Assembly: GCA_958009085.1 (NCBI GenBank)
Contig: OY253669.1
Span: 1,116,001 to 1,180,000 of the forward strand
Origin: Protoeuglena noctilucae
Lineage: Eukaryota
DNA length: 64,000 bases
Reading direction: 5' to 3'
The notes beneath the pieces are model-generated. The model worked only from the letters and a program-made list of their open reading frames with translations, was not told the DNA's origin and did no database searches. Below, piece after piece: positions 6,947 to 58,720 of this stretch (the stretch's first letter is position 1; each line of letters opens with the position of its first letter). Position numbers and translations under genes: made by a program.

Positions 6947-8600
6947 CTATGCGATGAATAGAATGAAGAAGACCATGAAGACGAGCACGACCCCGAGAAT
7001 CTTGAGCGCCAGCCACCGGTTGCTGGAGATGGCGTTCAGGTACTGCGGGGCAGGACAGCTGAGGCTCAATGGCGTCTGGCATCTCATCGGGCAGCTGAGT
7101 CAAGCGACCACAGAAGAATCGCAAGAGACGTCATATATCGAACAAGCGCGGCGGCACTCCGTTGCTGTTGCTAGTCCCCGCGCATTTGCCCCGCCCCTAC
7201 ACTCGCCTTCAACAGCTGCCCCTGCGCCGCCTCCACGTTCATCAACGTGTCGTCCATGTTCTCGTCGATCCGCAGCGCCATCTCGCCCTGCTCCTGCACC
7301 ATCCCCGCCAGCTGCTGGAACATGCCCCCGAGCTCGTGTATTGTGGACTCGACCTGTCGAAGAGCGTCCGCCCGGCTGTCCAGGTAACTCTGCGGCGCCT
7401 GCGCCTGCGTCTGCACCTGCGACTGCTGCATCAGCGGACCCATCGAGGGCTCCGCGCCGCCGGACGCACCGCCCTCGAAGCCCGTGCCCAGCAGGAAGGA
7501 CGGAGTGGCGCCCCCGACGCCTGCGCAGGGACGGTGGGGCGACACAGAAATCGTCGACCCCGGCAGCGCTTGGCGACGAGCCACGGCGCCGCTCTCCGTG
7601 CGATGCCGCGCCGCGTCACCTGGGGCCGGGCTGGCTGCGAAGGGGGGCGGCCGTGGGCCCGAGGGCGCGGGGCCCTGCGCCACTCCCGAGAAAATTTGCT
7701 TGCGCTCCTGGTGCTGCCTCAAGCTTTCGGTGCGGGACGTGAGGACGTTTCGGAAATTCTCCGTCGCGTCTTTCAGCCGTCCCCGCAGCGAGTCGACCAC
7801 TGCGGGAGGGCGGACGGGCCACGCTGCGTCCCGGCGCCCCAGCCGGCCAGGGCTGCAGCAAGCCAGGAGCAGAGGCGAACCACGCATCGTGCACGCCGCA
7901 TCGCCGCGGGGCCGGTGTGAGCGGTGTGGGCAGCGCAATGTCACCCGTCGCCGAGTGGGTCTTGGACTGCTTGCTCCCCACGCCCGAGGTCCCCGTGGCG
8001 ACAAAGTTCTGGAGGTCCGTGATGGCCCCATTCAGGGACTGCAGGTCGCTCTGCGAGAACCGCAGAGCAGAGCGGTGCGCAAGGCGGAGTGTGCACCTCG
8101 CTGAACTGTGCGCAGCCGCAGCGCCCCTCTGGTCCCCCGCCCCAGCCCATGCCCCACCTTGACCACAGCAGTGAGTTCGTTGATCTGCTGCGCCGGGTCG
8201 TTGAACATCGACGTCTGCCGCGCAAGCTGGGACAAGCGCTGGAGTTTCTGCGAGACCTGGTGAATCCCGAGCCCGATCCGGGACGCCCTACGCGCAAACT
8301 CGCTCTTCTCCTCCGCGCTCTCCAGCCTCCGCGAGGGAAGCTGCGAGCAGGGAGCGGGAGTCGACAAGGCGAGTCGGGAGGGAGGGCCGCATGAGCACGC
8401 GTGGGTCCCTCGCGCCCGCGTTGGGCGGAGCGTTCGGCATCATATCAGTGCATGCGCTCGCGGGCAGACATCCTCACCAGCGGGCCTCGCTCCGCCGCGC
8501 TGGCCCCAGACGTGGACGCCGCGTACTGCCTCTGCAGCCTCTCGCAGAGGGACAGGAACTCGCTTGTCCTGTCGCGGGACTGCGACGTGGACGCACTCAT
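6947..8600 (-). CDS. SYP32: Golgi Qa-SNARE syntaxin-5 (Sed5/SYP3 family), 6 exons
   Basis: N-peptide RDRTSEF; SNARE helix VESTIHELGGMFQQLAGMVQEQGEMALRIDENM; C-terminal TM RWLALKILGVVLVFMVFFILFIA. Last intron 7043-7206 is GC-AG. Confidence 0.93.
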
Positions 8601-9047
8601 GGCTCGCGCCCAGGGGCACGGGCCGCGTGGACCGCACTAAAAGTTGGAAAACTCCTTTGTGCCCTGGAATCCCAGCAAGCCAGGAGCGCGGACCGCCAGT
8701 GGAGCGCGTGACGCAGGCAGGTGGCAAGATGTGCTGCGGGGGGCGCGGTCTCTGCCGGACAAACGCGACCCGGTTCTGAAACAAAGACGTGACGCTGTTT
8801 TGCCAGAGCTCTTAGCTCCATATCGTGTGCGCCACTGGCGACGACAGCACCATCGAGACAACAGATCGATGCCTGGGTCGCATCCGCCGAACCGGCGAGC
8901 AGATACCAGCCTGCACCTGCCGAGGAATCGCGTGTTGCTTCTTACTCGCTCCCGCGTGTTGATGTTCCGGATTGACACGTCCCGTTGTATTAAACGGTTT
9001 ATTTAGGCCCCTGTGGAGCCATCGCGGGGGCGTGGTGGAGGCCCAGG

Positions 9048-11079: not shown

Positions 11080-14000
11080 ATGGAGGACCACGATTTGAGG
11101 GCGCAAGGAGCGGAGGCTGCCCGGCGCGCGAGGGGAAGCTACAGGCGAGCCTGCGCGACCGCGTGCCTCCTTGCCGCTCACCGACATTGCATCGCATGCG
11201 AACGAGCTCGCGGGGGCTCATCATCGGCGCCCCTGCGACAGCCCGGACGGGGAAACCTTCCCGCCGATCCCGCGCGCGAGGCCTGACCCGGCGAACGGAG
11301 AGTTAGAATCTCTTGATCCCGCACATGGGGGCCTGGCCCAAGAGCCCCACCGGACCGCCCGGGGACGCCGCGTGGGCAGTTCTGCCTTCGTCGCGTCTCT
11401 GGGGGCCCCGGGAACCCACATGTGCACAACTCCAGCGTTTGTTTGCTACAAATCCCTCCTCCCCACCCCGGGCGCGCGTGCTTGGTGGCCCTGCGCGGCG
11501 CAGGAGCCCCGGTCCAGGCCCTGTGGAGGGAAACGCGACCGGAGGGTCTCCAGATGTCTGCGCTCTCGGAAAGCCCCTCCGACGAGCTTTGCTTGGCATG
11601 ATTTGGTGGCCGGACCGTCCAGCACCCCGCCGGCCGCCTCTGTTGGCGCGGCCGGCGCCCACACACCCTGGCGCCTGGCGGGGCTCCCAGCGCGCCCCAC
11701 CCGGCGCGGCTCCCCCGGGCCTTCGCCCCCTCGCTTGTTTACGATAGTGCTATGCGCCCAAACCCGCCCCGGACGTCACGCGGGCCTCACCCCGCGCGGC
11801 GGGGGATTCCCGCCAACTCGCCCCCGGGACCCCCCCCGCAGATGCTCGCGATGCGGGCAGCCCAAGAAGGGCCACGTTTGCAACTCGGGGCTTGCGGGCA
11901 CCTCGCAACCTCCGAGTAAGCGGGTCAAGATGCTCCCGGACGCGGGGGCCGGGCCTGCCACGGTCAGGACGACGTCGCAGGGCAACCTTGCACACCAGGT
12001 GAGGGGCCTCTTCCGACCGTCCTTGCGCTGCCTGTGTCCACCTGTCTCAGCCCCACTCCCGACATGCACCCGCCTCCCCGTTCCACCCCAGGGCTATGAG
12101 CAGGTCGCCCCGGCAGGGGTGGATGCGGCGCCCGAGGCACCCCAGCCGCTGGGCCGCGACGCAGCCGTGGCGGCGGCGGCGCGGCAGATTCTGGCGGACA
12201 CGGCGGGCGCGACGGCCATCCTGGAGGGCTCGGGTTTCACCCCCTTCGCCTCGCCCATGCGCCCGGGGGTTGGCCCAGCAGCTTCGCCGGGAGGCCTGTG
12301 GCTGGTGCCCGTGCCGCGCATGTCGTCCTTCCTCGGCCTCGCCACCCCCGGCAGCCCATGGGAGGGCGGCCCGCGGCCCGACTGGGACCCGGCAGGGACG
12401 CCGCTGGTGGGCCTGACGCAGGCGACGCCCCCGCAGTCCTTGCCGGGCCCGCGCGCGACCCCTCCGCCCTCCGCGTCCCGCCTGCGCGGTCTGGAGGCCG
12501 CCAAGGCCCGGATCGCCGCGGCGACGGCCTCGGGTCCCAACCCAGACAGCACCCGCACCCTCAACCACAGCCACGCGCTCACGTCCGGCAGCGGTGGGCC
12601 GGGCCCCTCCGCCACGGTGCCGGCCCGGGCCATCCCGGTGACGCCGCAGAGCGGCCACCCGGCCTCCGCACAGCGCGAGGCCCGCGGGGCGATGTACCAG
12701 ACCCCTCCGCCCACCCGGGGCGGTCGCGGCCACCACCCGACGCCCCGCGCGTTTGACCTACCCGTGGCGACGGGGCCCCCGGAACCCCCAGGGAACCTGT
12801 CTCCCTCGGACCCCCGCTACGAGCGCTGGTCCCACATGGCTGCCCAGATGCGCTTCATCACGGAGGGCGACATTTGCCTTCTGCGCATCCTCTCCATGAT
12901 TCCTCCGGAAGACCTCCCCTCCGTGAGCCTCGTCTCCAAGCGATGGTACTTCCTCGTGCAGGCAAGTCGCCATGCTGCAGCACGGTGCATGGCATGATGC
13001 ACCTCGTTGGCCACTGTCTGGCCTCGCTGGCAGTCCTTTTACTCAGAGCATGGATCGGGCAGGATTGCGTCCGATCCATGTCCAAGCAGTGCGTCCCGCG
13101 ACCCGTGACACCCCTCACCGCCCCCCGCAGTTCATCTACCTCCTCACCACCCGCATCAACCTCGTCTGGGATCCCAGCCGGCCACAGCTGGCGATGGGGA
13201 TTCTCGAGAGGACCTTCTTCCCGAGAGAGGTGGTCGTGTCGCCCAAAGCGCCCATGTCTGACGGGGACCTGGCGGCTCTGACGGCGGCGCTGCCAGACAC
13301 CATCCAGCTCTTCCACCTGCACGCTCCGCCCTCGGGGACCCACGCGGTGCAGGGGCCGGGGCTGGCGGGTCTCTCGGATTGCGGGCGCCGGCAGCTGCGG
13401 TCCCTTAGCCTTGAGGGCATGGGGTCTCTTCAGTCGCTGCAACTGGCGTGCTCGGAGCTGCAGCACCTGCGCGTCGCCCTGCACCGGGACGTCGGTGCCG
13501 TCCAACTCCGGTGCCCCGCGCTCGTCGACCTCGACTTGGATTTGCACGCGACTGCTCCGGCCAGTGCATGGGACAGGCAAGTGCGCGCAAGCTACACTAG
13601 CGCGACCTGAGGGAGCATTGTGGTGTGGGGGGCGTCGGCCTTTGCTAAAGGCCGTGAGCGAACAATTCCTGCGTTGCCAAGAGGCGATTGCGGGAGTCAG
13701 CATTGACCGCGCCCCATGCCTCCACCCCTGCCCGCAGCACCCCTGCCGCCCACACCCCTCAAGACATCGACTTGATGCGGTCGCTGGCGGAGCAGTGCCC
13801 GGGCCTGTTGCGTCTCACCGTGCGCTCGCAGACCTTGGGCGACACGGCGCTCGCGGCCCTCCTGTCCGGCACCCGCATGCGCCTGGCGTCGCTCGGTGTC
13901 GTCGGCGCGCCTCGCCTCACCGCGGACGGCCTCGCCCGTGCCCTCGAGTCCCTCCCGCCCCTCACGGAGGTCGATGTGTCTGGCTGCCGGTCCCTCACGG

Positions 14001-15069: not shown

Positions 15070-15718
15070 TCACTGGGGAACGGGGTAGCGCCCCACAAAG
15101 TCGACCGCGTCCGCCACAGAGCCCTGCAGGGGTCACGGGCGCAGCGAGTGACGTCGGAGCCCGGCCCTGCGCGAGCGGTGGGCGCGCGGCTCTCTTTCTC
15201 GCCTCATAGAGCTTCTCGGCGCTCTCATCGGCGATGGTGATGTTGAATTCCTGCTCCAACGCAAAGACGAACTCGACGCGGTCGAGCGAGTCGAGGCCCA
15301 GGTCCTTCTCCAGGCTCGCCGTCGGCGTGAGCTTGGACTCGTTGATCCCATCGAAGTGCCGGAGCACGTGCATCACGCGCTCCGTCACCTCCTTCTTGTC
15401 CATGTAAAAGTGCGGGCCGTGGTCGTCGTGGTGGTCGTGGTGGCCGTCAGGGTGGTGCTCGTGCTTGTCCTTCGATCCGTGATCGGATGCCAGGCCCCTG
15501 CGCGACGTGACGAGCCGCGCGCTCGCGGTGCTGGGGCAGGCCGCCCCGAGTGCGTGCCTGTGGCGGATCTGCATGCCGCCCGGGACCCGGGCCGTGCCAA
15601 CGGGCATGCCTCAGCGCCCGCATCACCTCCATCCCATCTGCATGCCCCCCATCATGTGGGAAGATGCGGCGAGCCGACGCCAGGCCCCCTGCAGGCCCCG
15701 GGCGAGCGAGAGCGCCAT
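15070..15718 (-). CDS. Mitochondrial acyl carrier protein, 3 exons
   Basis: DLGLDSLDRVEFVFALEQEF phosphopantetheine site; last exon GSVADAVDFVGRYPVPQ* via GC-AG intron 15124-15202; Arg/Ala-rich presequence. Confidence 0.93.
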
Positions 15719-26000: not shown

Positions 26001-26363
26001 CGACCCTTGCGACTCGCGCGAGAAAGCCCTGATAGAGGTCTGGAGGAAGCCGATTGCGGCCCGAGTGACCGGATGCGGCGGCTGCGCTGGGTGCCCCGGG
26101 AGCACGGGCCTGCTTGCCTCGGTAGCGCTGTGGGATCCCGCCTCGCGCAGCGCATCCAGTGCCGCCTCGTTCATGCCGGTCCCGTCATCTTCGACGCAGA
26201 AGGAGAGGCTCGAAGGGTCCACTTCGACGCGAATGCAGGTGGCTCCTGCCTGAAGCGCGTTGAGCACGCAGTCCTCGACCGCGGCGGGGAAGGACAGCAC
26301 CCCGACCCCATCCTCCAGCTCCGCTGAAGCGCGGGGATCCAGCCTCTGCACGGCAGGTGTCAT
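23064..26363 (-). CDS. MLH3: MutL homolog 3 (mismatch repair / meiotic crossover endonuclease), about 11-12 exons
   Basis: N-terminal GHKL fragments (VEDDGTGM, VKDLWFNTPVRR); C-terminal DQHAADERVQLEE endonuclease motif, ACRTAIMFGD and CAHGRPT. Confidence 0.88.
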
Positions 26364-29205: not shown

Positions 29206-29992
29206 ATGAGGTCGGCCCTCACCCGGCTCGCCGTCCCCTGCACGCAGGCCCTCCTCGCCGCTCCTTCGATCAGGTGAGCGCGTCTCTCTCTTGTCATGGA
29301 AAGCATGTCGCAAACACGTCGCTGACGCTTTGCGAAAGCCGGGCCCGGATCCCGCAGAGCCGGTGTGTTTGCACCGCGCTTTCCTGGCCGTTGTGTGGTA
29401 TTTCTGGCCCCGCGCAACCCCCTCACGTCTCCTTCTCGGCAGGTTCCAGCTCCGGGCGCCGGGGGTCAGCGGTGTCAGCAAGCGCAGCGCTCGAGCCATG
29501 GCGAGCGAGGAAGAGCGCGCGAGGGTGGGTCCCACGCGCGCCCCCGCCCCGTCCCATCCCCTCCGTGCGTCGCGTTGTCCAAACAATTACACATGTGATC
29601 CGTCGCTCCCTTCTCAGGCCGCGGCTACCGCGGGGATCGACCCCAACGCGCCGACCTTCTTCGACAAGATCGTGAAGAAGGAGGTCAAGGCCAACATTAT
29701 CTACGAGGACGACCTGTGCATGGCGTTCCGGGACATCAACCCGCAAGGCCCGTGCCACTTCTTAGTCATCCCCAAGGACAAGGACGGCCTCGCGGGCATC
29801 TCGTTCATGGAGGAGCGCCACAAGTCGCTCATGGGGCACCTCATGTGGGTCGTGGCCAAGGTCGCGGCGCAGGAGAAGCTCGACCACGGCTACCGCGTCG
29901 TCATCAACAACGGCCCGGACGGCTCCCAGTCCGTCTACCACCTGCACATCCACGTCATCGGCGGCAGGCAGATGACCTGGCCGCCCGGCTAA
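29206..29992 (+). CDS. HINT: HIT-family nucleotide hydrolase (HINT/PKCI) with N-terminal targeting extension, 3 exons
   Basis: PTFFDKIV, AFRDINPQGPCHFLVIPK, QSVYHLHIHVIGGRQMTWPPG*; upstream exon MRSALTRLAVP… splices in frame. Confidence 0.93.
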
Positions 29993-30020
29993 GTCGCTGC
30001 GAGTTGAACCTGCTACGGCG

Positions 30021-31360
30021 CTAGCAACCGGGCTCAAGTTCGGGGTCAGAGACGTCTCGGCGGTCGTGCATCTCCACGACATCGGCGGAGCCAGTGGAAG
30101 GCCCCTCGTCCTTCCCGTCCGCCGCCGCCGTCACAGGCGCGTAGTGGAAGCTGCGTTTGTGCTCGGGCGCCGTGAAGTAGAGAATGAGGCCGGCGGCATC
30201 AAAGGCAAAAGATACGGCGAAGGAGATGGCCTGCGCGCTCGTGAAGCCCCCGAACACGGCCACGCGCGCGACGCTCGCCCAAAGGTCCGAGGTCAGCAGA
30301 GAGAGGTTGAGTGTGGTGGCGCTGCCGACCACCAACATCCTCGGAACAGACGAGTAGAAGAGGAACAGGGCGGTGACGAAGCCCAGGTAGAGTGCGACGG
30401 ACGGCGCGTTGATCATCTGCGCCATGGCCGGCCCTTCCAGCGCCAGGCACTGGACACCGCTCACGAGGAAGCCGCCCAGGCCGATGGCGCCCAGGTACTC
30501 AAGCTCAGAGGCGCTGCCCAGGATGGCTTCCTGCGCCACGTTGAGCCCCGCGTACAGCGTGGCGCCCAGCAGGGCAAGCATGTCACCCCCGAGAGCAGAT
30601 CCCGAGCCTGCAAGATGAGGGGCGGTGGCATGCCCAGGTAGCGCGCTGAAGCGTGCCCAGGTGGCATGCTCCAGAGGCCCTCGTGGGTTCGGGGCAAACA
30701 AGGGGCCATTGCGTGAGCGAGGCATCAACCTCACAGAACAGCTTCTCACCTCCGTCGCGGTTGTCCGACAGGACGAGGAGGGTCAGCCCCGTCACGCAGA
30801 TGGCGGCCCCGAGGAGGTGCTGGCGCCCGTATCGCCGCTTGAGGGCGACGAACGAGAAGGCCATGACGCAGGGGATGGTCCAGTTGCTCAGCAGCATGAC
30901 GGAAGTGACGGATGTGAAGCGATACGCGAGCACCATGCAGAAGTTGGCCTGCACGTCGATGAATGATATGACGAAGTAGGCCCACGCGGGGGCGGAGAGG
31001 CGCTTTCCTCGCCTCAGCTGAACCGCAAGCGAAGGGAGGTAGACTCCAGCCAGCAGCGTGTACGTTCCAACGAGCTGGAACGCAGGCAACGACACGCCCC
31101 GGTCGTCCAGCAGGGCGCTGCGAGCAGAGGCCGAACCAGGGAGGTTCTCCGGTATTTGCTTGGGCTGCTGCGCCATCGACCAAAGCACCGGGATGCGCAC
31201 CGCGCCTGAAAACGGCCGTGAGGGCCACACCGAGGGAAAGGGCCTGCCCAAGAAGCAGTCGCTGCCACCATGGCCACACGGGATGCTGGTCCGGGTCCGC
31301 CTGCTCCTCCTCCATGACGTCGACGGTGTCACCCGCCGGGTCACGCAGCGGTGATGACAT
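30021..31360 (-). CDS. SLC35F1/F2-like (DUF914) DMT-superfamily transporter, 3 exons
   Basis: LLLGQALSL, IDVQANFCMVLAYRFTSVTSVMLL, GDMLALLGATLYA, SATTLNLSLLTSDLW; intron 31118-31205 is GC-AG. Confidence 0.9.
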
Positions 31361-31801: not shown

Positions 31802-33537
31802 ATGCGGCAATCCTACGGCTTCGGGGCCTCGCAGGGCATGCGGGACACCGCTGTTCGCAGCGAGAGCGGGATGTCTACGCGCAAAGAGTCTCAGGGGAAC
31901 GGCCCGCGCTTCCCCAGCCGCCCGCTGTGGTCCACAGGGCGGCGGGCGAGTGTCCAGCCCGAACCAGGTTCTCTGGGGAGCCTGCCGCTCTGCCACAGCC
32001 AGCCGGAGGCGTGCGAGCTTCCGGGGTCCTGGCGCGTGTTCCCAGAGGCGCCCCGGTCCCAGCCCAGGTGTCATGGGGGCGCATGCTAACAACCCATCGC
32101 CTCGCGTTGGAACCGCCTCCCTCATCACCGGGCCGCCGAGCGCTTGCAGGGCGAAGGATACGAGCGAGGCGAGCAAAGGGCGGGTGGCCTGCGTCGCCCC
32201 ATTCCCTGGGTCCCAGGACACCGCAGGGGGCTCTGCCCACCAGGACCACTCGCAGTCCACGTTCGTGCATCTCGCCGCCCTGTCCAACCTGCACAGCAAG
32301 CAGGTAGGCTTTGGTTCGGGAGCGGCGGGACAGTCGCGGGCCTCGTGGGAGGCTCGTGCGCAACGAGGCGTGCCTATGGTGCCTGCAGGTGCGCGACCTC
32401 AACGACCTCACAGGGAAGGTCACCCTGCTCCAGCAGACGGCTACGGCGGCATGGTCGAGCGCGCAGCAGAGCCTGGAGGATGTCAAGGCGGAGACCCTCG
32501 CCCTCAAGGCCGACGTGGCGGGCGTGGTGCGGCGCGCACGCGCAATGGCACATGGAGAGACCTCGCCACACACTTCCTGGACCAAATGCGCTCCTTGCGG
32601 CTCACATTTGCAGGCCAGGGCCGTGCAGGAGGCGAAGGAGTCGAGTGCTCAGGAGGAGGCCTTCCAAACCAGGCACGGGAATGCAGGGGCATGCATATGA
32701 CGGGGTTCAGCAACTGCCAGGCTTTCATCTCCGCCGCTGCATGGCCAAAGCCACGCCCCTCGTTGCATCGCAGTTGCTCGGCACGCTGCAGTGCCTGGTC
32801 GAGGACGTGCGGCTCTTGCTGGTCCAAAACGAGGAGCTCAAGGCTGCCGCCTGCAGGCCCCAGGCAAGGACTGGTTGGTCGGCCACGGCGCTCCCGTATG
32901 CTCCCCTGCGATGCGCGGCGTCTCGCTGACTCACGTGCCCCGCCCGAGTCGGCATGCGCAGAGCCCCGTGACGCTCCCGAAGCCCAGCTCGGAGGCCAGC
33001 GTCGTGGCCCTGCACCATGCGCCGGCCGCGGAGGCTGTGGACGCCGCCCTCCTGACGCTGCCGCCGCCAGGTTCTTCGGGATTCCTCAGGACGGCTCCAG
33101 ACAGGAACGTCCGACTGGCTGTGCGCAAGTGCGGTGCAGCCCGAGGCTGGTCAAGGGGGCAGTGGGTGTGCGCGAGCTGCCCGAGACTCACACGACGTTT
33201 CAGTGATCGTCATTGCAGGTTGGGGACGGTGGAGAGGGGCAAGCAGGGGAACCGGTCGGACGGCCTGGGGGTGCGGGCTGTCCCCTGGCCGGGCCACGTG
33301 GATCAGACGGCAGCGGGCAATGGGAAGATGGAGGCCGCTGACATCGAGGTGAGTTGGAGAAGGAGCGGCTGCGAATGCCACGGCACTGACTGGCGCGCTG
33401 AGGAAAGTCGCAACACATCGCTGATGACGCGCTCGCCGTGCGTGCTCCAGGCCATGAGGCAGCGCATGGAAAAGTACCGTCGTAAGCGCGCGTCGCGTGC
33501 TCTTCAGAGGCGCAAATTCGGCGAGGACGCGGCATGA
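31802..33537 (+). CDS. Uncharacterised protein with SQ-rich N-terminus and central coiled coil; one junction ambiguous
   Basis: Most exons join in frame (VRDLNDLTGKVTLLQQ…SLEDVKAETLALKADV; LQCLVEDVRLLLVQNEELK); phase conflict near 32673-32773. Confidence 0.55.
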
Positions 33538-37261: not shown

Positions 37262-38638
37262 ATGGAGTTGCCAAGCGAGAGCGGGCGGCAGTCGTGGGGA
37301 GGCGGGGAACGCGCAGCTGTGCTGTGCGTCGTCCCCTCCCTGCCTGCGGACGTCGGCCCGTCGATTGCGATTGTTCGCGCGGCCATCGATGACGCCATCG
37401 AGAAGGATGCTCTGGACGCTCGCGTCGTCGATGTGGTGATGCGCCCGAACGCCGACCCCGATACGGATGCCCCAGCGGGCGTGGTCTGCCTTGCGTCCCT
37501 CACCACTCGAGGAGGTGAGCCGCCCGCAACCTCCCGCCCCGACATTTCGACTACACTTGTCCGGAGCCCCACACCGGCGCCTCATTCGCCCCGCAGGAGA
37601 ACAGGCGCTGCTCGCCAGGCTCCGCAGCGTCCCGGGGGTACACTTGGTTGAGTCGTGGATTACGGCACCATGCTTCGTGCCCATCCGATGCCCCAGCCTG
37701 CGAGAGCTCACCCTGCCCGTGGAAGAGGCGTGCTCGCCCGCCGCGACGTCCCTGCTCAGGCGAGCGGGAAGGGGCCCGTTCTCACCGCGCCGGCCTGGCA
37801 TGGCTTGCTGGCTCATGTCGTGCAGCCACGCGGCACGCAGGGACGCCGGGACGCTCTGCCTGGACGGCGCGGTCAGAGGCGAGGACCTGGGCGGGGCGTT
37901 GGCGGGTGCAGATGGCCGCATTGCCATGGCAGAGTTTTTGCTTGCGACCAAGCACCCCCAGCTGCACCCCGGGAAGGACCCCTTCGCCTTTGCGGAGATG
38001 GGCTCGCGCGGCAACGAGCGCTTCGACCTGCTCTTCGACCTGGACGACCCCCTCGCTGCGACGGTCGCCCGGCTGGCACGCGAGGGTCCCTGGATGCCCC
38101 TGGTGCGGCAAGCCCTGGGACCCTCGGCCCTGTGCATGGCGGGCGTCATCTACTCGCGCCCCGGGGCCCCAGACCAGGCCTGGCACGCGGATGGGGGGCA
38201 CGTGGGGCGCGCCGCCGGCTGGTGCGCGGGCGCTGAGACGCTGGCTGGCCACCTTTGCTGCTGCTCGCCCCCATCCCATCCTATCCCTCGCTCGCCGCTG
38301 CTCCTCGCAGGGACGGCCAGGGCGCCGAGGATCCGTACGCGCTGTGCGTGTTCGTGCCGCTCATCGACTTGGACGTGCGTGTCGGCTACACCCAATTCTG
38401 GCCTGGGTCGCACGTCTCCAGCGGCCTGGTGGGGTTCGGGGCCGCCGCGGAGCTCATGGGGTGCACGGTGGATGCGATCGTCGCGGCGGGCGACGCCGTG
38501 GTCTACGACTACCGCCTCATGCACCGAGGGATGGCGAAGGTTGGGGACCGCCGCCGGCCAGTCCTGCAGTACGTCTATCACGTGCCGTCGTACCGCGAGA
38601 CCAAGAACTACGGCACGGAGAAGCTCTTTGGCATTTGA
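37262..38638 (+). CDS. PhyH-like Fe(II)/2-oxoglutarate dioxygenase, 4 exons
   Basis: QAWHADG (HxD), CVFVPLIDL, TQFWPGSH, GDAVVYDYRLMHRG (distal His), RPVL. Confidence 0.85.
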
Positions 38639-40644: not shown

Positions 40645-41372
40645 ATGTCAGCAGTAGCGGCGGACTACCCCACGGAGCCAGCTCTGAGCAAAAGGCGAGC
40701 GCGCGGCAAGCCTGTGCCCTTTCGCCAAGCCATGCATCGCGAGGGCGGCCGTGCGCCGGCCTTATCGATGCCCGGTAACATGGCGTACTCTCATTGCGTC
40801 GTTTGCTGCCATCTCCATGCAGGTTCAGCGAGAAGCGGGCGCGGGAGGTGATGAAGCAAGTCATGGTGGACAAGCTGAAGGGCCAGGCGAGGGCCGGCTG
40901 CACCACGCGGCGTGTGTGCTTGCTTCTCAAGCGTACGCACACGAGGCGCCAAGACCGGCATCGCTTCACGAGCGCTGAGCTAGCTTGGCTGTCCCAATGG
41001 TGCGCATGCCGTGTCCCTCCCCGCCCGTGCAGGAGTATAACAACGACACGGCGCCGCAGTTTGCACGGGAGATTGCGGACGAGGTGAAGCGCGTCCTGGC
41101 GGGGGAGGGCTGGCCGCGATACAAGCTCGTCGTGCAGTGCGTGATTGGCGAGCAAGGGGGCCAGGTGTGGGATCGGGCGATGGGCATTGTGCTGTGCTGC
41201 CCTGGCCGCCGCGTCTCGAGTTCTACGACTCGGTTTCGCCGCCCCCTCGCAGGGCATGCGCATGGGGTGCCGGTGTTTCTGGGACACCAAGTCCGACGCG
41301 TTTGCAGAGGAGATGTACAGCAACGAGAGCATGTTTGCCGTCACTGCCGCCTTTGGCATCTACTACTACTGA
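40645..41372 (+). CDS. Tctex-1 family dynein light chain, 4 exons
   Basis: RFSEKRAREVMK…EIADEVK…PRYKLVVQCVIGEQGGQGMRMGCRCFWDTKSD…FAVTAAFGIYYY*; introns 40695-40822 and 40887-41032 are GC-AG. Confidence 0.92.
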
Positions 41373-42458: not shown

Positions 42459-45400
42459 CTACGCGCAGGTGCCGCGCAGGGTGAGCCTGCAGGTGCGGGG
42501 CGGGCGATGCGGGCGTGGGCGCCAAGTTCTGGTACAGCGACGCCAGCGTCAGGGAAGCGCTGCATGCATCACCGCCCTGTGCTCACCGGAGCTGCTCTGC
42601 GAGCACCAGAGTGGTGCGGCCGCGCTTGGCCGGCCGCCTCATTAGCTCCCGCCACTTGTCGTGGCTGAGCCGCCCCGCGCTCTGGCGAGGGTCACCCTGA
42701 GGCGGCGTGGGAGGGGCGACTGTCACCGTTGCTCGAAGCGGGGCTCAAGGGGCTTAGGCACGATGGTCGTGAGAGTGGAGGCAGGTGCTGCGAGGGTGCA
42801 TGGTGATGCATCGCGCATCGTAGGTCCTTGCTGTCCACTCACGTCCGTCCAACCCTCGAAGACAACCTGCTCGTTCGTCGCGGCGCCCTTCATCGGCACC
42901 TGCCGGACTCCCACGGGCATCAGGTAGTCGATCGCAAAGGGCTGCACCTGCAACACACGAGCAGCACCGGCCATGCTCACGCTCTCGTCACCAGACCCAC
43001 GCAAGCACTTGGATGAACCCAACAGCAACAGATGCACGAGCTCTCGCATATCGCGCAACGAAAGCCCGCCCTCGATGCCTGATGCCTGGCTGGAGCAGCC
43101 CCCGCGCACACGAGCACGCTCCACACAGCGCCACCACCACACTCGCCTCCTGCCCGACCGTCTTGCCCACGGAGTCCTTGAGGAAAGCCTCGTAGGTGTC
43201 GACCTCCCTTTCGTAGTCCCGGACGGGGAAGTTGGTCTTGGCCGAGGGGCCCTTGGAGACCAGGAGGCCGCGGTCGTACTGCGGCCATCGTTGCGGTCAC
43301 TGTCGACAGATGGGACAGCAGATGGCAGTCTCTCCAATGAACACCACTTGGCGCAGTCTGACAGCAACTTCGACCACCGACCCGCGGGGTCGTTGCCAGC
43401 CCGGCCTAGCTGCGAGCTCCTGTCGCAGCAGCCCGTCCGGGCGCACGCCGCGCCGCCCAGCACGCCAGGCCCTCACCTGCCTCGCCGCCTCGGACTCCGC
43501 CTCGAAGACGCCGAATGACACGTTTTTCTTGCCCAGGAAACACCCGATGCGGGCCTCCCAGCGCCCGGGCCGTCCCGACACCCCCCGGTACCGCGACCGC
43601 CCCCGGGCGAAGGCGTTGCTGTGGCGGCGGATGTGCGCGACGAGCTCGTCCTGGTCCATGTGGCTGACCTCCTTGAGCTTCTCCGCGTACTTGTCGTGCG
43701 TGAAGTTGGTGCTGGCACGGTCGCCCTTGCAGAAGATGGCGGCCAGGTCGTGCGCCTCCGCCGCCGCCTCTTCCGAGTCATAGCCGCCCAGGTACAGCTG
43801 CCGACCCTGGGGACGCGATATGCACGAGGAAGGGCATCAGGCGATGCTGCTGGGATCTGGCTGCGCTGCCCCTGGGCCGCCCTTGTGCAGCAAGAGCGCT
43901 CTGCGCTAGCCGAACCCCGTGTCCCGCTGCTGCGCACCTGGACCCACACGGAGGCCTCCCAGCGGCCCGTGAGACGGTGCTTGGAAACGCCCTTGTATCG
44001 ACTGGAGTTGCTGGCGGTCTGCGGCACGCCCTCCGGGTGCCTCGCCCGCACCCTGCATGCCGCCAAGAGGCCGAATCTGGCACGTGTCATCTCTGCCAGA
44101 ATAAGAGGCCCCGACATCTTCCTTCGACATGCCAGTCTCTAAGCGAGCCAGACCGAGGCATGCGTGTCGTGGAGGCAAAGGTCAGACGCCATGCTGCGTG
44201 CCCACCCTCTTAGGCGCGTGCCTGCTTGCCCCCTGACCCTCACATACCTCGGCCCGTGCCACCCACTCCCGACATCCCGGCTCACCTCGGCACTGCGTCC
44301 CGGCCCTTGCCGTCGTTGGAGGACCTGTCTGAGTCGTCGCCTCCCTCCTCCGCCCACTGCGCAAAGGCGGTGCTGCGGTCGCACCCATCCGCATCGACCT
44401 GAAATGCGAGAAGCACACGGGAGGTGGTCCGCAAGCCTAGGTACCGACGCATGGCTGCAGACATTAACACGTTGCTTTGCCTCTGGCACCCACGACGCCC
44501 ACGCACCCCACCCAGCCGCCTCGTCACCCAGCAACCCCACCACCGCTCTCGTGCCCTCACCTCGTAAGCAGGGACTTGTGATGCCATCTGCCCCTCCCCA
44601 CATCCCTGACCCGACCCATCCCTACCAGCGTAAGTCACCTTGTCAATGAGGCCGGCCCCGTCCCCGCGGGAGGCGAGGCGCGTGGACCTCCTGCAGTGCC
44701 CCGCTCCCTGGGAAGTGTCCCTTTGGCCCAGAAAACGCGGAGAGAAGGCCACGTGCGGGAGCGGGGGACCCTGGGGAGCCAGCAGGCTCATGCCACTTGT
44801 GTCGGACAGCAGCGTGTAGGCGCCCAAGACCGCGTTCCTGCAACGGGCGGAGTGCGTTTGGGGTATGAATTGCCGTTTGACAGACGCAGCTTTGCCGTGA
44901 AGCTGTGCCGCAGTGCTGCTCCCAGTGCGGCCGGCCATGCCTCTGCAGCGCCTCACCTGGGCAGTGCGCCCTCGAGGTGGGGAGAGGCAGCGGCGCCCTG
45001 CGACGGCGCGAGGAGGACGTCCGCAGTGGGCGAGCCCAGCTGCCACGGGAGGGGACCCGCGGGCCATCGGGAGTAGGGCTTGGGGGTGTCCAGGGCGCTG
45101 TGGGGCAGCGTGGCGTCTGTGACGTCCGTGGCAGAGGTGTTCTGCGGTGAAGGAGAGGGAGAGCGGGGCGACGTTCCCGGCATGCCTGGTGGGCGCGTTT
45201 GCACGTCCAGCTGGGTCCCCATGGGCCGGCGAGGTGGGGATCGTGGGAGGCGGAGCCCACCTTGCTCTGCCAGCCGCTGAGCTGTGGGGCGGACGAGTTC
45301 AGCCTGGGCCTCTGAGCGGGCGAATTCTCCGGCGTGTCGTCCGGCCCGGGCGAGCCCTGCAGTTGGGTCGGGGAGGGTGACGTCGCCGTGCAGCACAGGG

Positions 45401-47018: not shown

Positions 47019-49345
47019 CTACCCATCGGCGCCGCCAACCATCGCGGAGACGGACTCCCAGACGCCCACCACAGTCACGGTCAACCCGAGCACCAACACG
47101 CCCGCGGCAGCGAGCGTGGTCCCCCAAGGCAGCGACCCCTTGTCCCGCTTGACCTGCGCGCGGAGCCAGCGGTCCGTCACCGCGCGCGCCCCGACCGCTG
47201 CGTCGTTCCTGGCTGGCAGCCGCGGCCACAACCCACACTGTCCACCACGACCCACCTTGAGCAGCAGCACCATCGGCCAGAAGAAGCTGATGAGGACGCC
47301 CGCGGTGGCGCCCGTGAGCTCGATCGCGACCCAGATGGACGGAATGGTGATGGCCAGGAGGAGCCCGGACCCCAGGAGCACGTACGTCAGCGTGTACCAC
47401 ACCGGGGACCCTGCAGCGGCGCCGGACACGCACTCGCCGGAACGGCGCGGACCCAACGCGCCGAGACCCCGCCGCTGCGGCATGCGCGCCGCTCACCCGG
47501 GTCCGGGGTGGTGTTCCACGCCAGCTCAAAGGCGTTGACGCGCAGCGCCCAGTTGATAAGCGGGTATGTGACCATGAGGGAGGCCACGTAGAGCAGCTTG
47601 ACGATCGTGGCCACCACGACCGACCCCGTGCCGCCCAGCAGCCTCTCGAGGTTCTCCCTCCCAAAGGACGCCAGCACGTCCGCCTTGATGTTGCTCCCGA
47701 ATACCATGTAGGCCCCCGCGCCCACCACCATGTACATGGCCCCGCAGATGAGCACCGCCACGCGCACCACCACGCCCGTCCGCTCCTGCGCGGACCGCGG
47801 CGCGGATCACTCCCACCATGAGACGGTGCGTGTCGAGCGCCGTGAGAGGGGCCCATCTCACGGCGCGCCGACCACGTGGCGGTGCGAGCTTTGGTCTGAC
47901 AGACCAAAGCTCGCATCGCCACGCAACGCGTGCCGCCCGCCCCACTCGCGCTCGCGCTCGCCTTGGAGTAGTTGCGCATCTCGCCCATAATCGAGTGGAT
48001 GTTGAAGTGGCAGTTGTACGCCGTGAGCACGACGGGCATGGCCTGGACCACGGTGCGGAAGCCGCGGAGGGCCGTGCCCCCGAGCATGGCGGCGTCCGGG
48101 AACAGCCGCACGTCCGCCTCCTTCCCCTCCGTCAGCGCGGTGAGGCCCAGGGCGCCCGTGGTCACCGCGAAGCACATGGCGATGGCGATGGACACCGTGC
48201 TGGTCGAGGCCAGGTTCCGCATCGACTTGAGCGCCACCAGAGGCACCAGCACGGAGCACGTCACCACGCTCAACACCACGAGCTTGGACAGGTACCACGG
48301 CGCCGCGTCGCCGCCGGGCGTCCCAAACAGGACCGGCAGCACCCCGCGGATGTCGGCCCCGCCCACCAGCACGTCGCTAGCAATGATGAGGTAGACGATC
48401 ATGATGCCGAAGTTGTTGACGATGATCGCCAGCTGCATGCTGCGGCCGCCCCACCGCCCGAACTGGCTCTCGACCAGAGCCCCGTACGACACTGCGAGCA
48501 CGACCCGACCAGTCGTCAGGACTGCCACTGGTGGAGCCCAGCATGCGAGGCCCAGCTCGTGACCCGCGCCTCGCCTGTCTGCCGCGTCGTATCCGAGACC
48601 CAGATGAGAGCCTCGAGGCAGAAGATGCTGATGAAAGCCCCCGCGCCGATGGCAAACAGCCCCAGCGCGAGACCCAGCTCCGAGACGATCCTGAGAGGGC
48701 GAGGCGGGCAGGGCACCGTCGGCGTCATCCTTGCTTCGACTGCTGTCCGTCGCTGCCCCGGTCAGCCCGCCGCGTCTCACCTCGGCAGGGCCATGACGCC
48801 CGCTCCGACGATGGTGTTGGCTAAGTTGAAGATGGACTCCGACAGCGAGCATCCCTCCTCCGCGTTGCGCTCCTCGACGACCATGAACCCCTCGCTCGAC
48901 TCAGAGCTGCGCGCGAGAAGAGGAGGGTGTCGGGCAAGCGGTGAGGCGCCATGGCGATGGGGCGCCGACGCAGGACGCACCACATGACTTCCTGGTCGTC
49001 AGGGCCCGGCGAGTCTGGTCCGTCGAGGTCGTCCGTGTCCATCAGCTCGGCGTACTGGTCGCTCTTGAGCACCCGGACGCGCCTGGTGCCCCCCTTGGCG
49101 CTGCCGCTGCTCTCCTGCAACGTCGCAGTGGGAGTTGGGGCGGCTCCGACACGAGGGAGGCGCCCGCGGCTCGTGGGAGCGTTGACAGTCAGCGAAACGA
49201 GCAGGCGCCGCAAGCTCACCCGCAAGAGCGCCTGCTTGTCGTCGTCAAACCGCATCCGACTCCACTTCCCATCATCGCCCCGCGAGGGGAGAGCCTGCGA
49301 CGCTCCCCTGGCCCCGACAGCACCGCCACCGCCAGCATTGTCCAT
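47019..49345 (-). CDS. Amino acid/auxin permease (Aa_trans; AVT6/SLC38-like), 7 exons
   Basis: SIFNLANTIVGAGVMALP, NNFGIMIVYLII, AYNCHFNIH, ELTGAT; two GC-AG introns (48492-48574, 47786-47961). Confidence 0.92.
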
Positions 49346-52882: not shown

Positions 52883-55800
52883 TCAGGGAGTGCGCAGGTC
52901 CACTCCCCAATCCTCCAAACCCGCCGCTCGCTTCTTCCCGCCCGAGCCGGCCGCGCCATCCGCACCGCCTCCCTGCGCCGACCGATCCACGCCATTCTCG
53001 CGCACCCGCGCACCCTCCGCCGCCCCAGCCCCCCGGTGCTGCTCTTGCGAGGCCCGTGCCGCAGCCGGGCTGCCCTCGCCGCCCACCCCCGGGGCGTCCG
53101 CCACGGCATCCGCCGCGGGAGGAGCGTCCTCCTCCGCCCCGTCGTCCCACCCGCTCAGCGACGCCCGCACCACCGCCGCCGGGCGCCGCTTGGCCCCCTC
53201 CGCTGTCTGCTCCTGCATCGCCTGCATGAGCACGCCGCCCGCGCGGGGCCTCGGGTCCGGGACGCGCGACCTCCCGGCCGCTTGCGCCGGGATCCCTAGC
53301 CTCGCCGATTCCACCCGACGCTTGAGTGCGGGGTCGAGCGTCCGCTTGGGCGGGCCCGGGGCGCGGGCTGCGCTCTGCTCGCGCCTCGCGGGAGAGCTGC
53401 CCTTGGGCGCAATGGCCCGTTGAATCTCCTGCACGTTCGTCCTCAGCAGCTCCTCGTCGTCAGAGTCCATGGTCGGGTGCAGCGGCCGCAGGTGGTGAGG
53501 ACCCTCCGGCTGGGCCTTGTGCACGCGGTTGGGGTGGGGCATCTGTGGGGCCGCAGAAAGGGACCCGTCAGCATCGCTCTCGCACCAGCTCACGGGGGCG
53601 GACGAAGTCACACAAGCACGCCCGCAGTGCCCGCGTCGGGCAGTCTTATTCGGTAGGTCTCAACCGGCGGCGCCAGGGCGCATGACTTTGGACGCCAGCG
53701 CCATCTTCAGGCATCCTCACCTCGCGAATGAGGTCCCGAAACACCTCGCGTTCCTGCGAGAGCTGGATGCGGCGCCGGATTTCTTCCCTCCGCACGTCGT
53801 CCACCTCAGGCACGAAATGCTCGCGCACCAGCCGGCCGTACTGCCTCCGCATCTGCAGGCGCTGGGCCTCCTGCGCAGCGACACAGGCGGTGCGCGCGTC
53901 ACGCTGTGCAACTGGGCTACCAACTCAGCCAGGCGGCGCCACGCGCAGCGCCTCCCTTACCTCCCCGCGCGTCGGGGCGCCCGGCCGGGCGCTGCCCACG
54001 CCGCGGTTCCTGGGCGAGTCGCCACTCGCGCCCGCGGGGTCCCCCGCGCCCGAGTACCCGTCGTGCTCCTCGCCCACCACCGCCAGGTCGGGGTCGTCGC
54101 GGTTGGGGCGCCCACGGGCAGAAGGCGCTCCCCGCTGAGGCGGCCCGTCCCGCACGCGCATGACGTGCGCCTCGTATGCCGCTCGCTGCGCTTGCCGCCC
54201 CGTGAGCACGCGCTGCCTCGGGACGCCTGGCGCGGGCTCTCGGGGCATGGGGCGCCCGGACGGCACGGCCGGGACTCCGCGCCGCTGCTGCAGAGCCGCC
54301 TGCGACAATCGACGGGCCCCAAACGGTTCCCACCTCGCAGAGCAGTCCAGGCCTGCAGCGCATAGCACGAGACGCGCAGCGGGCCCCATGCAATGTGGGT
54401 CCTCTCTCGCCTGAAATTCGAGCTCGACCTGTCGCCTCTGGTCCTCCTGCCGGCGCTCCAGCTCCCGGTACAGCGGCGCCCTCACGGGGTTCTGCTGCTC
54501 GTGCCTCCGCAGACGCTCGCGCTCGTCCGCGCGCCTCTTGCGTTTCTCCTGCACGCCGCCGGTGAGTCGAGGCATGGCGTCGCGTGTGATACGATGTCTC
54601 AGACCCCGACTGGCCCCACTCTTGGCCAGGGCCAATCCAAGCGCATCTCTAGCTACGGCCGTGTTGCCGCAGCATAGGGACATCCAACAACACCTGCCTG
54701 TCACACGCAGCAGCACAGTTGGCAAGCGCGCATGCCCCTCGCCTGCTGCTCCCACAGGCGCCTCTCCAGCCGCGCCTGCCGTTCGCTGGCCAGGGCGTCG
54801 TGTGCCATGGCCCGCCGTTGCTCCTCCTCCACCAGCCACGCCTGGAGCTGCTCGAGCCGCTGGTCGTACGCCGCTTCCATGCGATGACGCCTCGCGTCCA
54901 TCTGCGGGGCAGTCCAAGCAGGTGCAGGTGTCTGTATGCGGCAGCTGGTGCATCATGCCCGGGTACCATGTGCATGACCACGCTCACCTCCTCGCGCATG
55001 TGCCGGTGCCGCTCCACGACCTTCCTGTACTCGTCCTCGGGCAGCGCACGGCCCCTCAGGGGCTGCTGGCCCGGCACGGCCAGCGCGGACGCAAAGTGCG
55101 AGCTGCTGCCGACACCCATGGCCTGGCGCCGGGCGTCGAGGCGACGCGCCCGGCCAGGCCCGGCTGCCCCGTCGCGGTCGGCGCTGCGGGACGCGTCTCC
55201 GGGCTCGGCCCGCGGGGCCCGAGGCGTGGGCTGGCTCAGCTTGGACCACCCGCGTGGGGTGTCGTCCGCGCGCGGAGAGATAGGGTCGGCCCGGTGGCCC
55301 GGCAAGGGTGGCAGGGAGGGCGGTACGCTCGGCAGCGGCAGCCGCGAGGGTCGGGTGCCGTCGGGGCTGACCGACTGGTGCCGGGGCGGGGTCACGTAGA
55401 TGCTGCTTGATCGACGCCCGCCACCAGGGGCGGTCTCCTCTGCGATGCCTGCCAGGGCTGGGTGGCCAGAGGACAGACTCGCGGAAGGCGCAGCTGCCGT
55501 GGCCGTGCCGACCGCGGCCGCCCCGGAATCACCCGGACGGGTCACCCCTGGGTCGCCCCCTCCCCCGTCCCCGCCACCGTTCCCTCCCCCGTCGGAGCGA
55601 CGCTGCCGCGCCACCCGCAGGCGCTCCACCGACGCCTGCCGCAGACTGCCCCGCCCGGGGGACTCGCTGGAGGCCCCTGGAGGTTCCCCAGCGGCCGCGG
55701 CTCCGTCCGCTCCGTTGCGCTCTCCGCGGTTTCTCAAAGAGTTGGACGGGCGCATCGCAACGGGGCGACTCGACGACGCCTGCGCCGCTCTCGTGGACGA

Positions 55801-58720
55801 CCCGGGCACCTCGGGGTGGTCCTGAGGCGCACCTGATGCGTCCACAGGACCTGGGCCATCCCCATCGACAGCACCGGCAATGGCTGGCGCACCTGAGCCA
55901 ACCTCCGCAGACGCGCCAGGCTCCGCCGCACCGGACCCCGACGCCCTGCCCTCCCCGGCGACGTCAGCCGCGCCAGGCTTTGAAGCCTCGGCCGCCGCGC
56001 CGGCCCCCTTCGGCGCCTCTGCACGCGGCCCCCCCTGGCCCCTCAGCAGTTTGCTGGATGCTCTGGACGGCGCCTTCGACGCATTGACGTCGCCTCGCCC
56101 CCCAACAGTGCTGGGCCCCTTCCCCAACACCTGCCTCCGACTCCCAGCCCCGCCCCGCACCCTCTGTGCCGTGCCTGGCACCCTCGCAGCCCCCGTCGCG
56201 TCGCCGTCCACCGCCTCCCCGTTCTCCTTAACGTCTTTGACCCCAGAGCCGCGCCCCTGAGGTTGCCCCTCCCCAGCATCACTGCCCCCGGCAACAACTG
56301 GGTCGCGCGCCGCCACTCGGCTCGGCTTGCGCTCCACCGCAGCGCCTGGCATCCCGTTCGCCAGGCTCTGCCTGCGCTCCGGGCCTTGGCTGGGCCCTCT
56401 ACTCGGGGCCCCAGGCCGACCCACACCGCTCTGTGTCTTGCGAGGCCCCCCGCCCGCCTGCGCCTTGCCCGCCCCACCCCTGCCGGGCTTGCCGCGCCCA
56501 GCCCCGCCGCGCCCCGCTCCCCCAGGTGCCTGCGCCCCCGCCTCCGGGCTGTGACTCCCAGTCGCAGGCGTTGATCCCTCGTTCGGGATCGTCTTGGCGC
56601 TTGCTGCCTCGGGCGTCGCCCGGCTTCCCCCGTTCTGCTCCCCCGACGCCCCCGGGGTCAGCGCTGCGCCCGGACCCTCCTCAGAAGCCGCAGCGACGCC
56701 CTCGGGGCCCCCCTCATCGTTTGCGGACGTCCCCGCCTTGTCACCCGACCCCTGGGCCTCGTCCGTCCCGCTGTGCTGAGGCACCTCCGGGTCTCCGTCG
56801 TGACTCCCAGCCTCGCGCCGCTGAGCATCGCCGCTCTCCGCCCCCTCTGGGACCGGAGCGAGCCTCCCGCTGACCCCTGCCCCTGACCCCGCACCCGCAT
56901 CGTGAGGCGCATGCGACTCGGTCGCACCATCCCCGCCGGGCGGGTCTGGAATCGGAAAGTCCGCCCTCGTCGTCTCCTCATCGTTGCCGTGCCCAGCGCT
57001 TGCCGCGCTCCCCGCCCCTGCAGCAGCCCCGGCGGCCACCGTAACGCTCTCGCCACCCATGGGGGCACCGGTTTCTTTGTTGTGCGACGTCGAGGTCCCT
57101 GCCGCTTCACCACTCAGTCGCTCTTCAGGGACAACAGGTGCCGTGGCTGTTTCCTGCGAGTCCTTGACCTGAGCGTCCAAGGCACGGCTGCTGCTGGCCA
57201 CGCCATGGCTCTGGGTTAGTATCTTGGAAGACCTGCAGATGGGGAATGGATCATTGATCACCGTCCATCCACAGACACGCTCAGGCAAGGGCAGCGAGAG
57301 AGGCACAGCCAACGCTGACGCTTGCAGTGATAGCCGCCCACAACACAGCTCAATGCCCAACATGACGGGCGCACGAGAACAATGCCACGCCATGCTCGCT
57401 GCTCACGTGCTGGTCCTCCGGTCAGCCATGGCCCGCAAGTTGGCGATGCTGCTCTCCCGTGATGGTTTGCTGCTGACTGGTTTGGGCCCGCTGCCGCCCA
57501 CAGCAGCTGCTGCCTCAGGCTCCGCGAAGCCCTCGCCAGCAGGGAGCGAAGGCGGGGTACCCGCCCCAGCCGCCACTCCATCGACACCCTCGTCAGCAGC
57601 ACCCGCCGCGGTCGCCACGCCATCGACGCTCTCGCCAGCAGGGAGCGAAGGTGGGGTGCCCACCCCAGTGTCACCTGCCCCAGCGGCAGGCGCTACGTGG
57701 TCCGCCTCAGTCGCCCGGGCAGGACGCGGCGCTTTGCGAGCGAGATGGCCCCGGGCCAAAGATTGCAGGCGCACCGCGGCGTCCTCAGGGCTCAAGTCCA
57801 CCATCGGCGGCGCGCGGTCATGTGTGGGAGGTGCCGTTGATGACCCATCTGCAGGCTCAGCAGCAGCCACAGCCGAGACAGGCCCACCAGCTCGCTTCTC
57901 TCCCGCCGCCTGGGCCTTCTTGCGACCCAGGTAGCCCTTGGCAGCGCCTTGCACCATGTCGAGCGCATCCGCCTCCGCCATCAATGCCTGTGCGCTCGGG
58001 GCAGGCGCCTGCTCCGTCCCCACCGCGCCGGCCTCCGGTTCGTGGCTCTGCTTCTCCTCATGCGCTTCAGGCGGGGCAGCAGATCCTGCAGTAAAGCACT
58101 GGGGGGTAGAGCTCAGGCCTTGTCCAAGTCCGTCCTCTCATTCGCCTTGTTGGATGCGATATATGGCCAAGACTGCGACACGAGGAACAGCGGGGTGCTC
58201 TCCGATCTCAATACTTGCCTGGCGAGGGTGCTGGGCGGTTGCGGCGTGCCGGGCGCTTCCGGGTCAGGTACCCACGGGCCAGGGACTGCAGATGCGTGGC
58301 CGCCTCCTCCTCGGTCAGGCCAGGACGGCTCTGATCGTGATTGGCGACCTCAGCTGGCATCGCGTTGAGCGGCGCGCTGGGCCCAGGGGCGTCTTCCGGG
58401 GGAAGCACCGGGTGCAGGGGCGGGGCCACAGGAGCAGCGAGCTTCCGCGCGAGGTAGCCCCGCGCCAGCGCTTGAAGGATAACGCCAGCACGTTCCTCCG
58501 ACATCATCGCTTGCGGACGGGTCGCGACTTGGGGTCCTGCGGGGCCTGGGCGCTTGCGGGCCAGGTGGCCACGCGCCAGGGCCTGCAGGACGACCGCAGC
58601 CCGCTCCTCGCTCGCGATGGCACCGCGGCCACCGGCAGGTGCGGAGCTCTGTTGCTCCTCTTCCATCGGCAAAGTCTGGTCCGGCGCCGAGGCGTCGATC
58701 CCGCCGTCCGGGGCGAGCAT
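52883..58720 (-). CDS. Large IQ-motif, low-complexity and coiled-coil protein, about 8 exons
   Basis: Five IQ-like motifs (LQALARGHLARK, LQALARGYLARK, LQSLARGYLTRK, VQGAAKGYLGRK, LQSLARGHLARK). Junctions keep frame through the ORFs at 58208-58720, 57403-58023, 54649-57393, 53925-54956, 53646-53852 and 52883-53611. Confidence 0.7.

Follow-up and report, generated by a model that had tools for sequence, protein, structure and literature searches.

The share of GC-AG introns in plants was given as about 1.2%, an average of 121 genomes (Pucker and Brockington 2018, PMC6310983), and much higher values were reported for several GC-rich algae. In Emiliania huxleyi 56% of 241 curated junctions were GC-AG, nine of them verified by reverse transcription PCR (RT-PCR), and their abundance was attributed to a genomic GC content of 65% (Feldmesser et al. 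2014, PMC4028052). Shares of 14-17%, again attributed to high GC content, were reported for the pelagophytes Aureococcus anophagefferens and Pelagomonas calceolata, and a lower-GC relative showed 0.32% (bioRxiv 10.1101/2024.10.30.620910). Here the introns of a 64-kb stretch of Protoeuglena noctilucae DNA (contig OY253669.1, positions 1,116,001 to 1,180,000; the whole stretch is called the window below) are described, in which an initial annotation made from the letters alone had marked 17 introns as starting with GC.

The evidence points, with a probability of roughly 0.8, to ordinary U2-type introns whose +2T was lost to GC pressure, which are removed by a standard spliceosome and which make up about 15-30% of the introns. 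The initial annotation presented the trait as a novelty of the lineage, which was an overstatement, as the same trait has been published for E. huxleyi and the pelagophytes; high GC-AG use is already known in GC-rich algae, and the window provides a green-algal case. A text search, supplements excluded, found no report of a high GC-AG share for pedinophytes or for any green alga, and an earlier description is possible.

Transcript evidence for GC-AG splicing

All 17 donor strings were found at the coordinates and on the strands first assigned to them, and all 17 candidate introns read GC...AG. The motif AGGCRMG occurs 109 times on both strands of the window compared to 79 +/- 8 in shuffled sequences, AGGTRMG 54 times compared to 28 +/- 5, and AGGCGAG 33 times against 18 +/- 4 expected. 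The donor motif, being mostly due to chance, proves little by itself, and therefore the proof must come from transcripts or homology. By this measure seven of the 17 claimed donors were proven by transcripts (15202, 31205, 37760, 40695, 40887, 47961 and 48574, that at 37760 indirectly) and one by domain continuity (7206); six are probable from the gene finder and frame logic (12962, 13577, 43146, 54410, 54742 and 58218), and three claims did not hold up beyond a weak or ambiguous status (11145, 26117 and 32864).

Of the words sampled from a 10-kb stretch of the window, 24-41% were present in the four marine metatranscriptome runs used (X1-X4). RNA contigs from these runs, most of them with an identity of 99% or more to the window, were aligned to positions 30001-50000, and for each of the 15 joints listed out of 32 every shift of the cut giving the identical joined sequence was enumerated. 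Ten of the 15 have a GT..AG reading, and the other five allow GC..AG only, with no shift giving GT..AG. These five correspond to claimed donors, each seen in X1, X3 and X4: 31118..31205 (-) in a SLC35F-type transporter gene (CAG/GCGCGG, the slash marking the exon border; the sole canonical reading is CT..GC on the + strand), 40695..40822 (+; AAG/GCGAGC) and 40887..41032 (+; CAG/GCGAGG) in the gene of a Tctex-1 dynein light chain, and 47786..47961 (-; AAG/GCGAGC) and 48492..48574 (-; CAG/GCGAGG) in an amino-acid transporter gene.

The intron 37760..37840 (+; CAG/GCGAGC) of a PhyH-domain gene follows from the arithmetic of contig X1-3, in which 162 letters separate a piece that ends at 37512 from one that starts at 37838, the middle piece not being among those listed. 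With one middle exon assumed, the piece ends are compatible with a single G[TC]..AG solution, the removal of 37515-37596 (GT) and 37760-37840 (GC). Two further GT-AG introns came from listed contig pieces. Altogether six of the eight claimed sites in the 20-kb stretch were supported, those at 32864 and 43146 being absent among the 15 of 32 joints listed.

The GT-AG introns supported by X1-X4 joints or pieces (n = 13) served as comparators. They lie at 37515-37596, 38222-38310, 40379-40586 and 41165-41252 on the + strand and at 30608-30749, 35984-36088, 39203-39326, 47154-47255, 47411-47496, 48691-48780, 48907-48980, 49115-49219 and 49363-49633 on the - strand. Run X2 yielded mainly unspliced contigs, which for instance read through 47411-47496 and 48691-48780, where those of X1, X3 and X4 are spliced; they may represent pre-mRNA, intron retention or library DNA.

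The seventh transcript-proven site lies in the gene of a mitochondrial-type acyl carrier protein (ACP). The first large ACP exon, used as query, led to close relatives, and a cluster look-up led to the transcript-derived protein P0135 (146 residues, contigs of about 1 kb), which translates letter for letter from the exons 15718-15627, 15497-15203 and 15123-15070 (-). This mapping gives the GT-AG intron 15498..15626 (-), taken as a further comparator, and the claimed GC-AG intron 15124..15202 (-; GAG/GCGAGA...CTGCAG/GGC). When the splice options were scored against the relatives, the GC donor at 15202 reached 358 and the best GT donor 275, and the relative P0126 has the same junction as P0135. 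In the HIT-domain gene P0235 translates exactly with 29525..29617 (+) removed, which is a GT-AG intron. The collection used for the cluster look-ups lacked 3 of 10 and 6 of 10 reading frames, and among the clusters found, spliced forms were met only in those of ACP and HIT.

The read-through form of the ACP GC-AG intron begins with Ala (GCG) in the proteins from here (P0125, P0134 and P0136) and with Val (GTN) in relatives (P0127 together with P0143, 85% protein identity, and P0128, 80%). Therefore the donor of one orthologous intron is GT in those relatives and GC here, so that the switch at orthologous positions, for which the initial annotation had proposed a search in related algae, was observed at this intron, apparently in the direction from GT to GC. 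In P0125, which derives from a 3288-nt contig and covers the ACP gene at 15056-15718 (-), the first, GT-AG intron is spliced and the GC-AG intron is retained. This single case may hint at a less efficient splicing of GC-AG introns.

The same data bear on the explanation that the GC donors are an artefact, that is, that they are misplaced and a nearby GT is used, that the introns are retained, or that GC is an assembly error or a minor allele where GT is transcribed. The largely accidental occurrence of the motif, the claimed sites outside the proven set and the many unspliced X2 contigs speak for it. Against it stand the five joints without any GT..AG shift, the fit of P0135 to GC..AG borders only, the Ala (GCG) read-through, recorded from 18 contigs and a partly spliced transcript, and the near identity of the RNA contigs to the window. 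Neither the use of nearby GT donors nor general retention, named at the outset as the outcomes that would contradict GC donors, was found at the seven transcript-supported sites, where this explanation is already refuted, and for the set as a whole it is considered very improbable. The GC-AG introns are cut from mature RNA at exact GC..AG borders.

Frequency, donor anatomy and the case for GC pressure

Among introns that had not been picked by the claim, 6 of 26 were GC-AG (23%, 95% interval 9-44%). This sample comprised 19 introns from the RNA contigs (six GC-AG; 15 of 32 joints listed), six from UBA1 and one from the HIT gene, the last two genes contributing no GC donor. At a true rate of 2% the probability of at least six GC-AG introns out of 26 would be 1e-5. 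The share of about 15% first estimated by hand is thus matched or exceeded in this window, and a share of 2% or less, which had been named as contradicting it genome-wide, does not agree with the count obtained here. The window-wide share is most likely 15-30%, and the level of at least 10% seen in GC-rich algae is reached in this window.

The UBA1 introns 1194-1374, 1536-1632, 1747-1952, 2499-2733, 3673-3886 and 4158-4345 (+) were obtained by scoring the junctions against 10 homologues. GT-AG was best in all six resolved junctions, and the seventh gave no solution.

For the anatomy of the donors 29 evidence-supported introns (8 GC and 21 GT) were compared. The donor core G[TC]G[AC]G is common to both groups, and the lengths, 74-271 nt, are similar; the acceptor is GCAG in 23 of the first 25 evidence-supported introns and ends in AG in 29 of 29. 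G occupies position +3 in 8/8 GC donors and, of the 19 GT donors tabulated, in 18; six of these 19 have C at +4. An exon ending in AG together with +5G was found in 8/8 GC donors compared to 10/21 GT donors (Fisher p = 0.012), and the matches to CAG/G.RAGT outside +1/+2 averaged 5.5 of 7 for GC and 4.57 for GT donors (one-sided Mann-Whitney p = 0.0006). The suggestion that GC donors are stricter than GT donors at the rest of the site was thereby borne out. GC-AG introns are known for a closer fit of the remaining donor positions to the consensus.

These shared features also bear on the idea that the introns belong to the U12 type and are removed by the minor spliceosome, for which the non-GT donor speaks and nothing more. 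The donors read GCGAG, GCAAG or GCGCG and are not of the ATCC type, and the consensus and the GCAG acceptor are common to GC and GT introns, which leaves this explanation with next to no probability.

More serious is the proposal that the spliceosome itself is altered, a variant U1 small nuclear RNA (snRNA) or changed U1C, Prp8 or U6 contacts accepting +2C like U, without handicap. The proven donor at 31205 (GCGCGG), which carries both +2C and +4C, would fit such a change, as would a GC-AG share of about 23%, far above the plant average of 1.2% (PMC6310983). The stricter remainder of the GC donors is, on the contrary, what is expected if +2C still costs pairing energy, and P0125, with its retained GC-AG and spliced GT-AG intron, points the same way, although as a single case. 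An altered spliceosome is therefore regarded as unlikely, yet it is the strongest of the competing explanations. No Rfam family was found in the window at gathering thresholds, and no snRNA gene lies in its 64 kb.

Erosion of +2T by GC pressure had been mentioned in the initial annotation as one of several possibilities; with a standard spliceosome it is the preferred explanation, and it fits the GC content of 65-72%, the shift towards GC at other donor positions (+3 and +4) and the GT/GC difference at the ACP intron. The GC content was determined in 4-kb steps throughout the window (about 68% overall), well above the 60% taken as the mark of a GC-rich alga. A strong GC-biased mutation or fixation would keep converting +2T to C, and +2C would be tolerated where the other donor positions (exon-end AG, +3G, +4A and +5G) allow good pairing to U1 and U6. 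As +2C would be tolerated only at well-pairing donors, GC donors would accumulate as a strict AG/GCGAG class, whereas GT donors would remain looser, and a special spliceosome would not be needed.

Several points weigh against this account. High GC content alone is probably not sufficient in general: frequent GC-AG introns are not known from other GC-rich green algae, for instance Chlamydomonas. The result comes from one 64-kb window, and within it the stretch 30001-50000 was picked for its 8 of the 17 claimed sites; it is thus an enriched sample, and therefore the RNA-based share, drawn from 15 of 32 joints, leans upward. The absence of GC introns among the six of UBA1 indicates that the share is uneven between genes. 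The compensation statistics are based on eight GC donors, two of which came from the claim list and possibly favour consensus sites. For the GCAAG subclass no excess was observed (AGGCAAG 11 times against 9 +/- 2.8 expected), and RNA or homology proof was obtained for none of the five claimed GCAAG donors, which are among the 9 of 17 sites outside such proof. The gene finder described below made at least one false GC call, 29501-29617, where the true intron 29525-29617 has a GT donor. Finally, the direction of the ACP change is read from three lineages and not from a rooted tree.

Donors placed by domain continuity and gene prediction

The syntaxin-5 intron 7043..7206 (-; AAG/GCGAGT...CGCAG/TAC) was placed by enumeration of the splice options against the Pfam SNARE profile, in agreement with the gene finder. 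The upstream frame matches profile positions 1-35 and the downstream frame 26-53, and the donor 7206 with the acceptor 7043 makes the profile continuous and gapless at 26/27. The nearest GT donor, 7200, would insert two residues into this heptad-register domain. The small syntaxin exon gave no match in the PDB.

A purpose-written semi-Markov gene finder, with splice signals from 25 evidence-supported introns and a codon table from Pfam-matched segments, was subsequently self-trained; it recovers 22-23 of the 25 training introns. At a GC prior of 1% it called 19 of 128 introns GC, at 5% 27 of 135, at 25% 29 of 106 and at 50% 35 of 109, and across the runs it predicted every claimed donor except 43146. 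It merges genes and calls introns inside the intronless UBA1 of a relative, which are false positives, and it was used as supporting evidence only. The warning that the donors would break standard gene prediction proved justified, for with the 1% prior the RNA-proven intron 31118-31205 was exchanged for a false GT intron, 31118-31268.

Two probable GC-AG introns with the donor CAG/GCAAGT interrupt the F-box/LRR gene. The intron 12962..13130 (+) was predicted at all priors; residue 621, at base 12961, is the last of the F-box Pfam match, reading through leads to a stop after 11 codons, and the sole GT donor in frame, 12956, fits the consensus poorly. The intron 13577..13737 (+) was predicted at priors of at least 0.25 and was replaced at 0.01 by the GT intron 13511-13737. 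Apart from the reading frame of the window itself, the search for F-box/LRR homologues met distant LRR proteins only.

In the gene with two AP2 domains the probable intron 42948..43146 (-; GAG/GCGAGT), which the global gene finder missed, has a local score of 43.1, the highest of five sites examined locally, with no rival donor within +/-80 nt and an upstream coding score of 21.8 over 40 codons. Continuity of the AP2 domain across the GT intron 43279-43476, whose weak acceptor fell below the gene-finder thresholds, fixes the exon upstream of the donor. The segment 43147-43800 (-) encodes two AP2/ERF-type domains, the second split by that GT-AG intron, the acceptor of which is nearly without a pyrimidine tract.

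A gene with no known domain contains the probable introns 54300..54410 (-; CAG/GCGAGA) and 54549..54742 (-; CAG/GCGAGG), both donors being predicted at every prior including 0.01; the acceptor belonging to 54410 differs between runs (54213 or 54300). The probable intron 58065..58218 (-; CAG/GCAAGT) of an IQ-motif gene has IQ motifs in both flanking frames, which the donor, of phase 1, joins in frame; it was predicted after self-training and has a weak acceptor, TGAAG.

The three remaining sites are of lower quality. The claimed donor of 11145..11841 (+; CAG/GCGAGC; 697 nt) has a good donor score (7.1) but no coding signal on either side, was predicted only after self-training, and its acceptor, followed by ATG, was guessed. 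That of 32864..32994 (+; CAG/GCAAGG) is the sole candidate within +/-80 nt, with a weak acceptor (CGGAG) and a downstream coding signal of about zero, and was predicted in some runs only. In the divergent MutL-like gene the donor of 26029..26117 (-; GAG/GCAAGC) ties with 26141, likewise a GC donor, and neither PDB alignments, which end near the site, nor 22 homologues from a representative search separate the two.

The MutL-like protein itself (25826-26363, -) was found to miss about four residues of the usual GFRGEAL motif and to have a shorter linker past the ATP-binding motif than the MLH1, PMS2 and MutL structures. Judged from its sequence, it may be a divergent paralogue, or a small exon may have been overlooked.

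The host alga and comparison with known systems

Pfam scans of 277 reading frames, picked by third-position GC, revealed a dense row of ordinary eukaryotic genes split into short exons, with about two introns per kb: UBA1, syntaxin-5, a DUF819 protein, the F-box/LRR protein, the ACP, RNase II, the MutL-like protein, Mago nashi, the HIT protein, the SLC35F transporter, a radical-SAM protein, the PhyH protein, Tctex-1, the two-AP2-domain protein, the amino-acid transporter, a SET protein, the IQ-motif protein and an eIF4G-like MIF4G protein. An assembly gap of 200 N (60422-60621) lies directly upstream of the eIF4G-like gene. Between two diverging genes a stretch of about 40 nt (36850-36892), beginning with a T10 run, is the sole match of several X1-X4 contigs, which continue into unlike sequence on both sides. 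In X1 this stretch also reaches the highest summed depth; probably it represents a short segment that is shared or of low complexity.

The UBA1 exon used as query matched green-plant proteins only, the nearest named one being from Pedinophyceae sp. YPF-701 (76% identity). In a maximum-likelihood tree of 27 UBA1 sequences the window grouped with two other proteins and the YPF-701 pedinophyte with support 100/99, and therefore the host is, on the sequence of this one gene, a green alga of the pedinophyte clade and not a haptophyte. In the closest relatives (L001:3337-6510, L002:10001-13174 and L003:98-3271) UBA1 is an uninterrupted reading frame of 3174 nt encoding a protein 81-83% identical; their contigs have 71% GC and no other gene in common with the window. 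With at least six introns in the UBA1 of the window, intron density varies greatly inside the clade, and this difference implies intron gain or loss on a large scale.

Such a difference could be taken as a trace of an introner, a recently spread intron-generating element carrying its own GC donor. However, when 108 introns, confirmed or predicted, were compared all against all, no related pairs emerged except overlapping predictions, and no copies were found elsewhere in the window. The introns are thus not copies of one another, and therefore an intron-spreading element is not their source within this window; as a general explanation it is rated as slightly less probable even than an artefact, and GC pressure on ordinary donors remains the preferred one.

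Wherever a predictor accepts GT donors only, its gene models for this alga and related species will be faulty. Possibly one intron in four is concerned, and the majority of multi-exon genes would then contain one or more errors. Placed beside the haptophyte and the pelagophytes, a green-algal case strengthens the view that GC-biased evolution is able to push even the donor dinucleotide, within limits set by U1/U6 pairing. The difference between GT and GC at one orthologous intron among close relatives shows a recent and still ongoing change, and therefore its rate and the accompanying compensation are measurable by comparative genomics. It is tempting to speculate, though the odds are somewhat below even, that in this pedinophyte-clade alga the GC-AG share, about one in four introns, far exceeds all others reported in the green lineage, and that at one and the same intron +2 flips between T and C among relatives with no more than 80-89% protein identity. 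If so, the clade would be a natural experiment on how much mismatch at the 5' splice site a standard spliceosome tolerates under GC pressure, and it could also reveal an as yet unseen change in U1, U6 or Prp8.

Among the published cases, the window resembles E. huxleyi (Feldmesser et al. 2014, PMC4028052) in being very GC-rich (about 68% here, 65% there) and in combining frequent GC donors with an AG acceptor; there too GT-biased gene models were mispredicted and intron retention was noted. It differs in the share of GC-AG introns, which is 56-60% in E. huxleyi and about 15-30% in this one window, in the kind of proof, RT-PCR there and public RNA contigs with transcript-derived proteins here, and in belonging to a pedinophyte-clade green alga instead of a haptophyte. 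The magnitude is similar to that of Aureococcus and Pelagomonas (14-17%), but those are stramenopiles, not green algae, with less than one intron per gene, whereas the window has about two introns per kb. With the ordinary GC-AG introns of plants and animals the introns of the window share the U2 type and the same borders; they are about 20-fold commoner, and their donor core is GCGAG, with +3G in 8/8 proven cases, in place of GCAAG.

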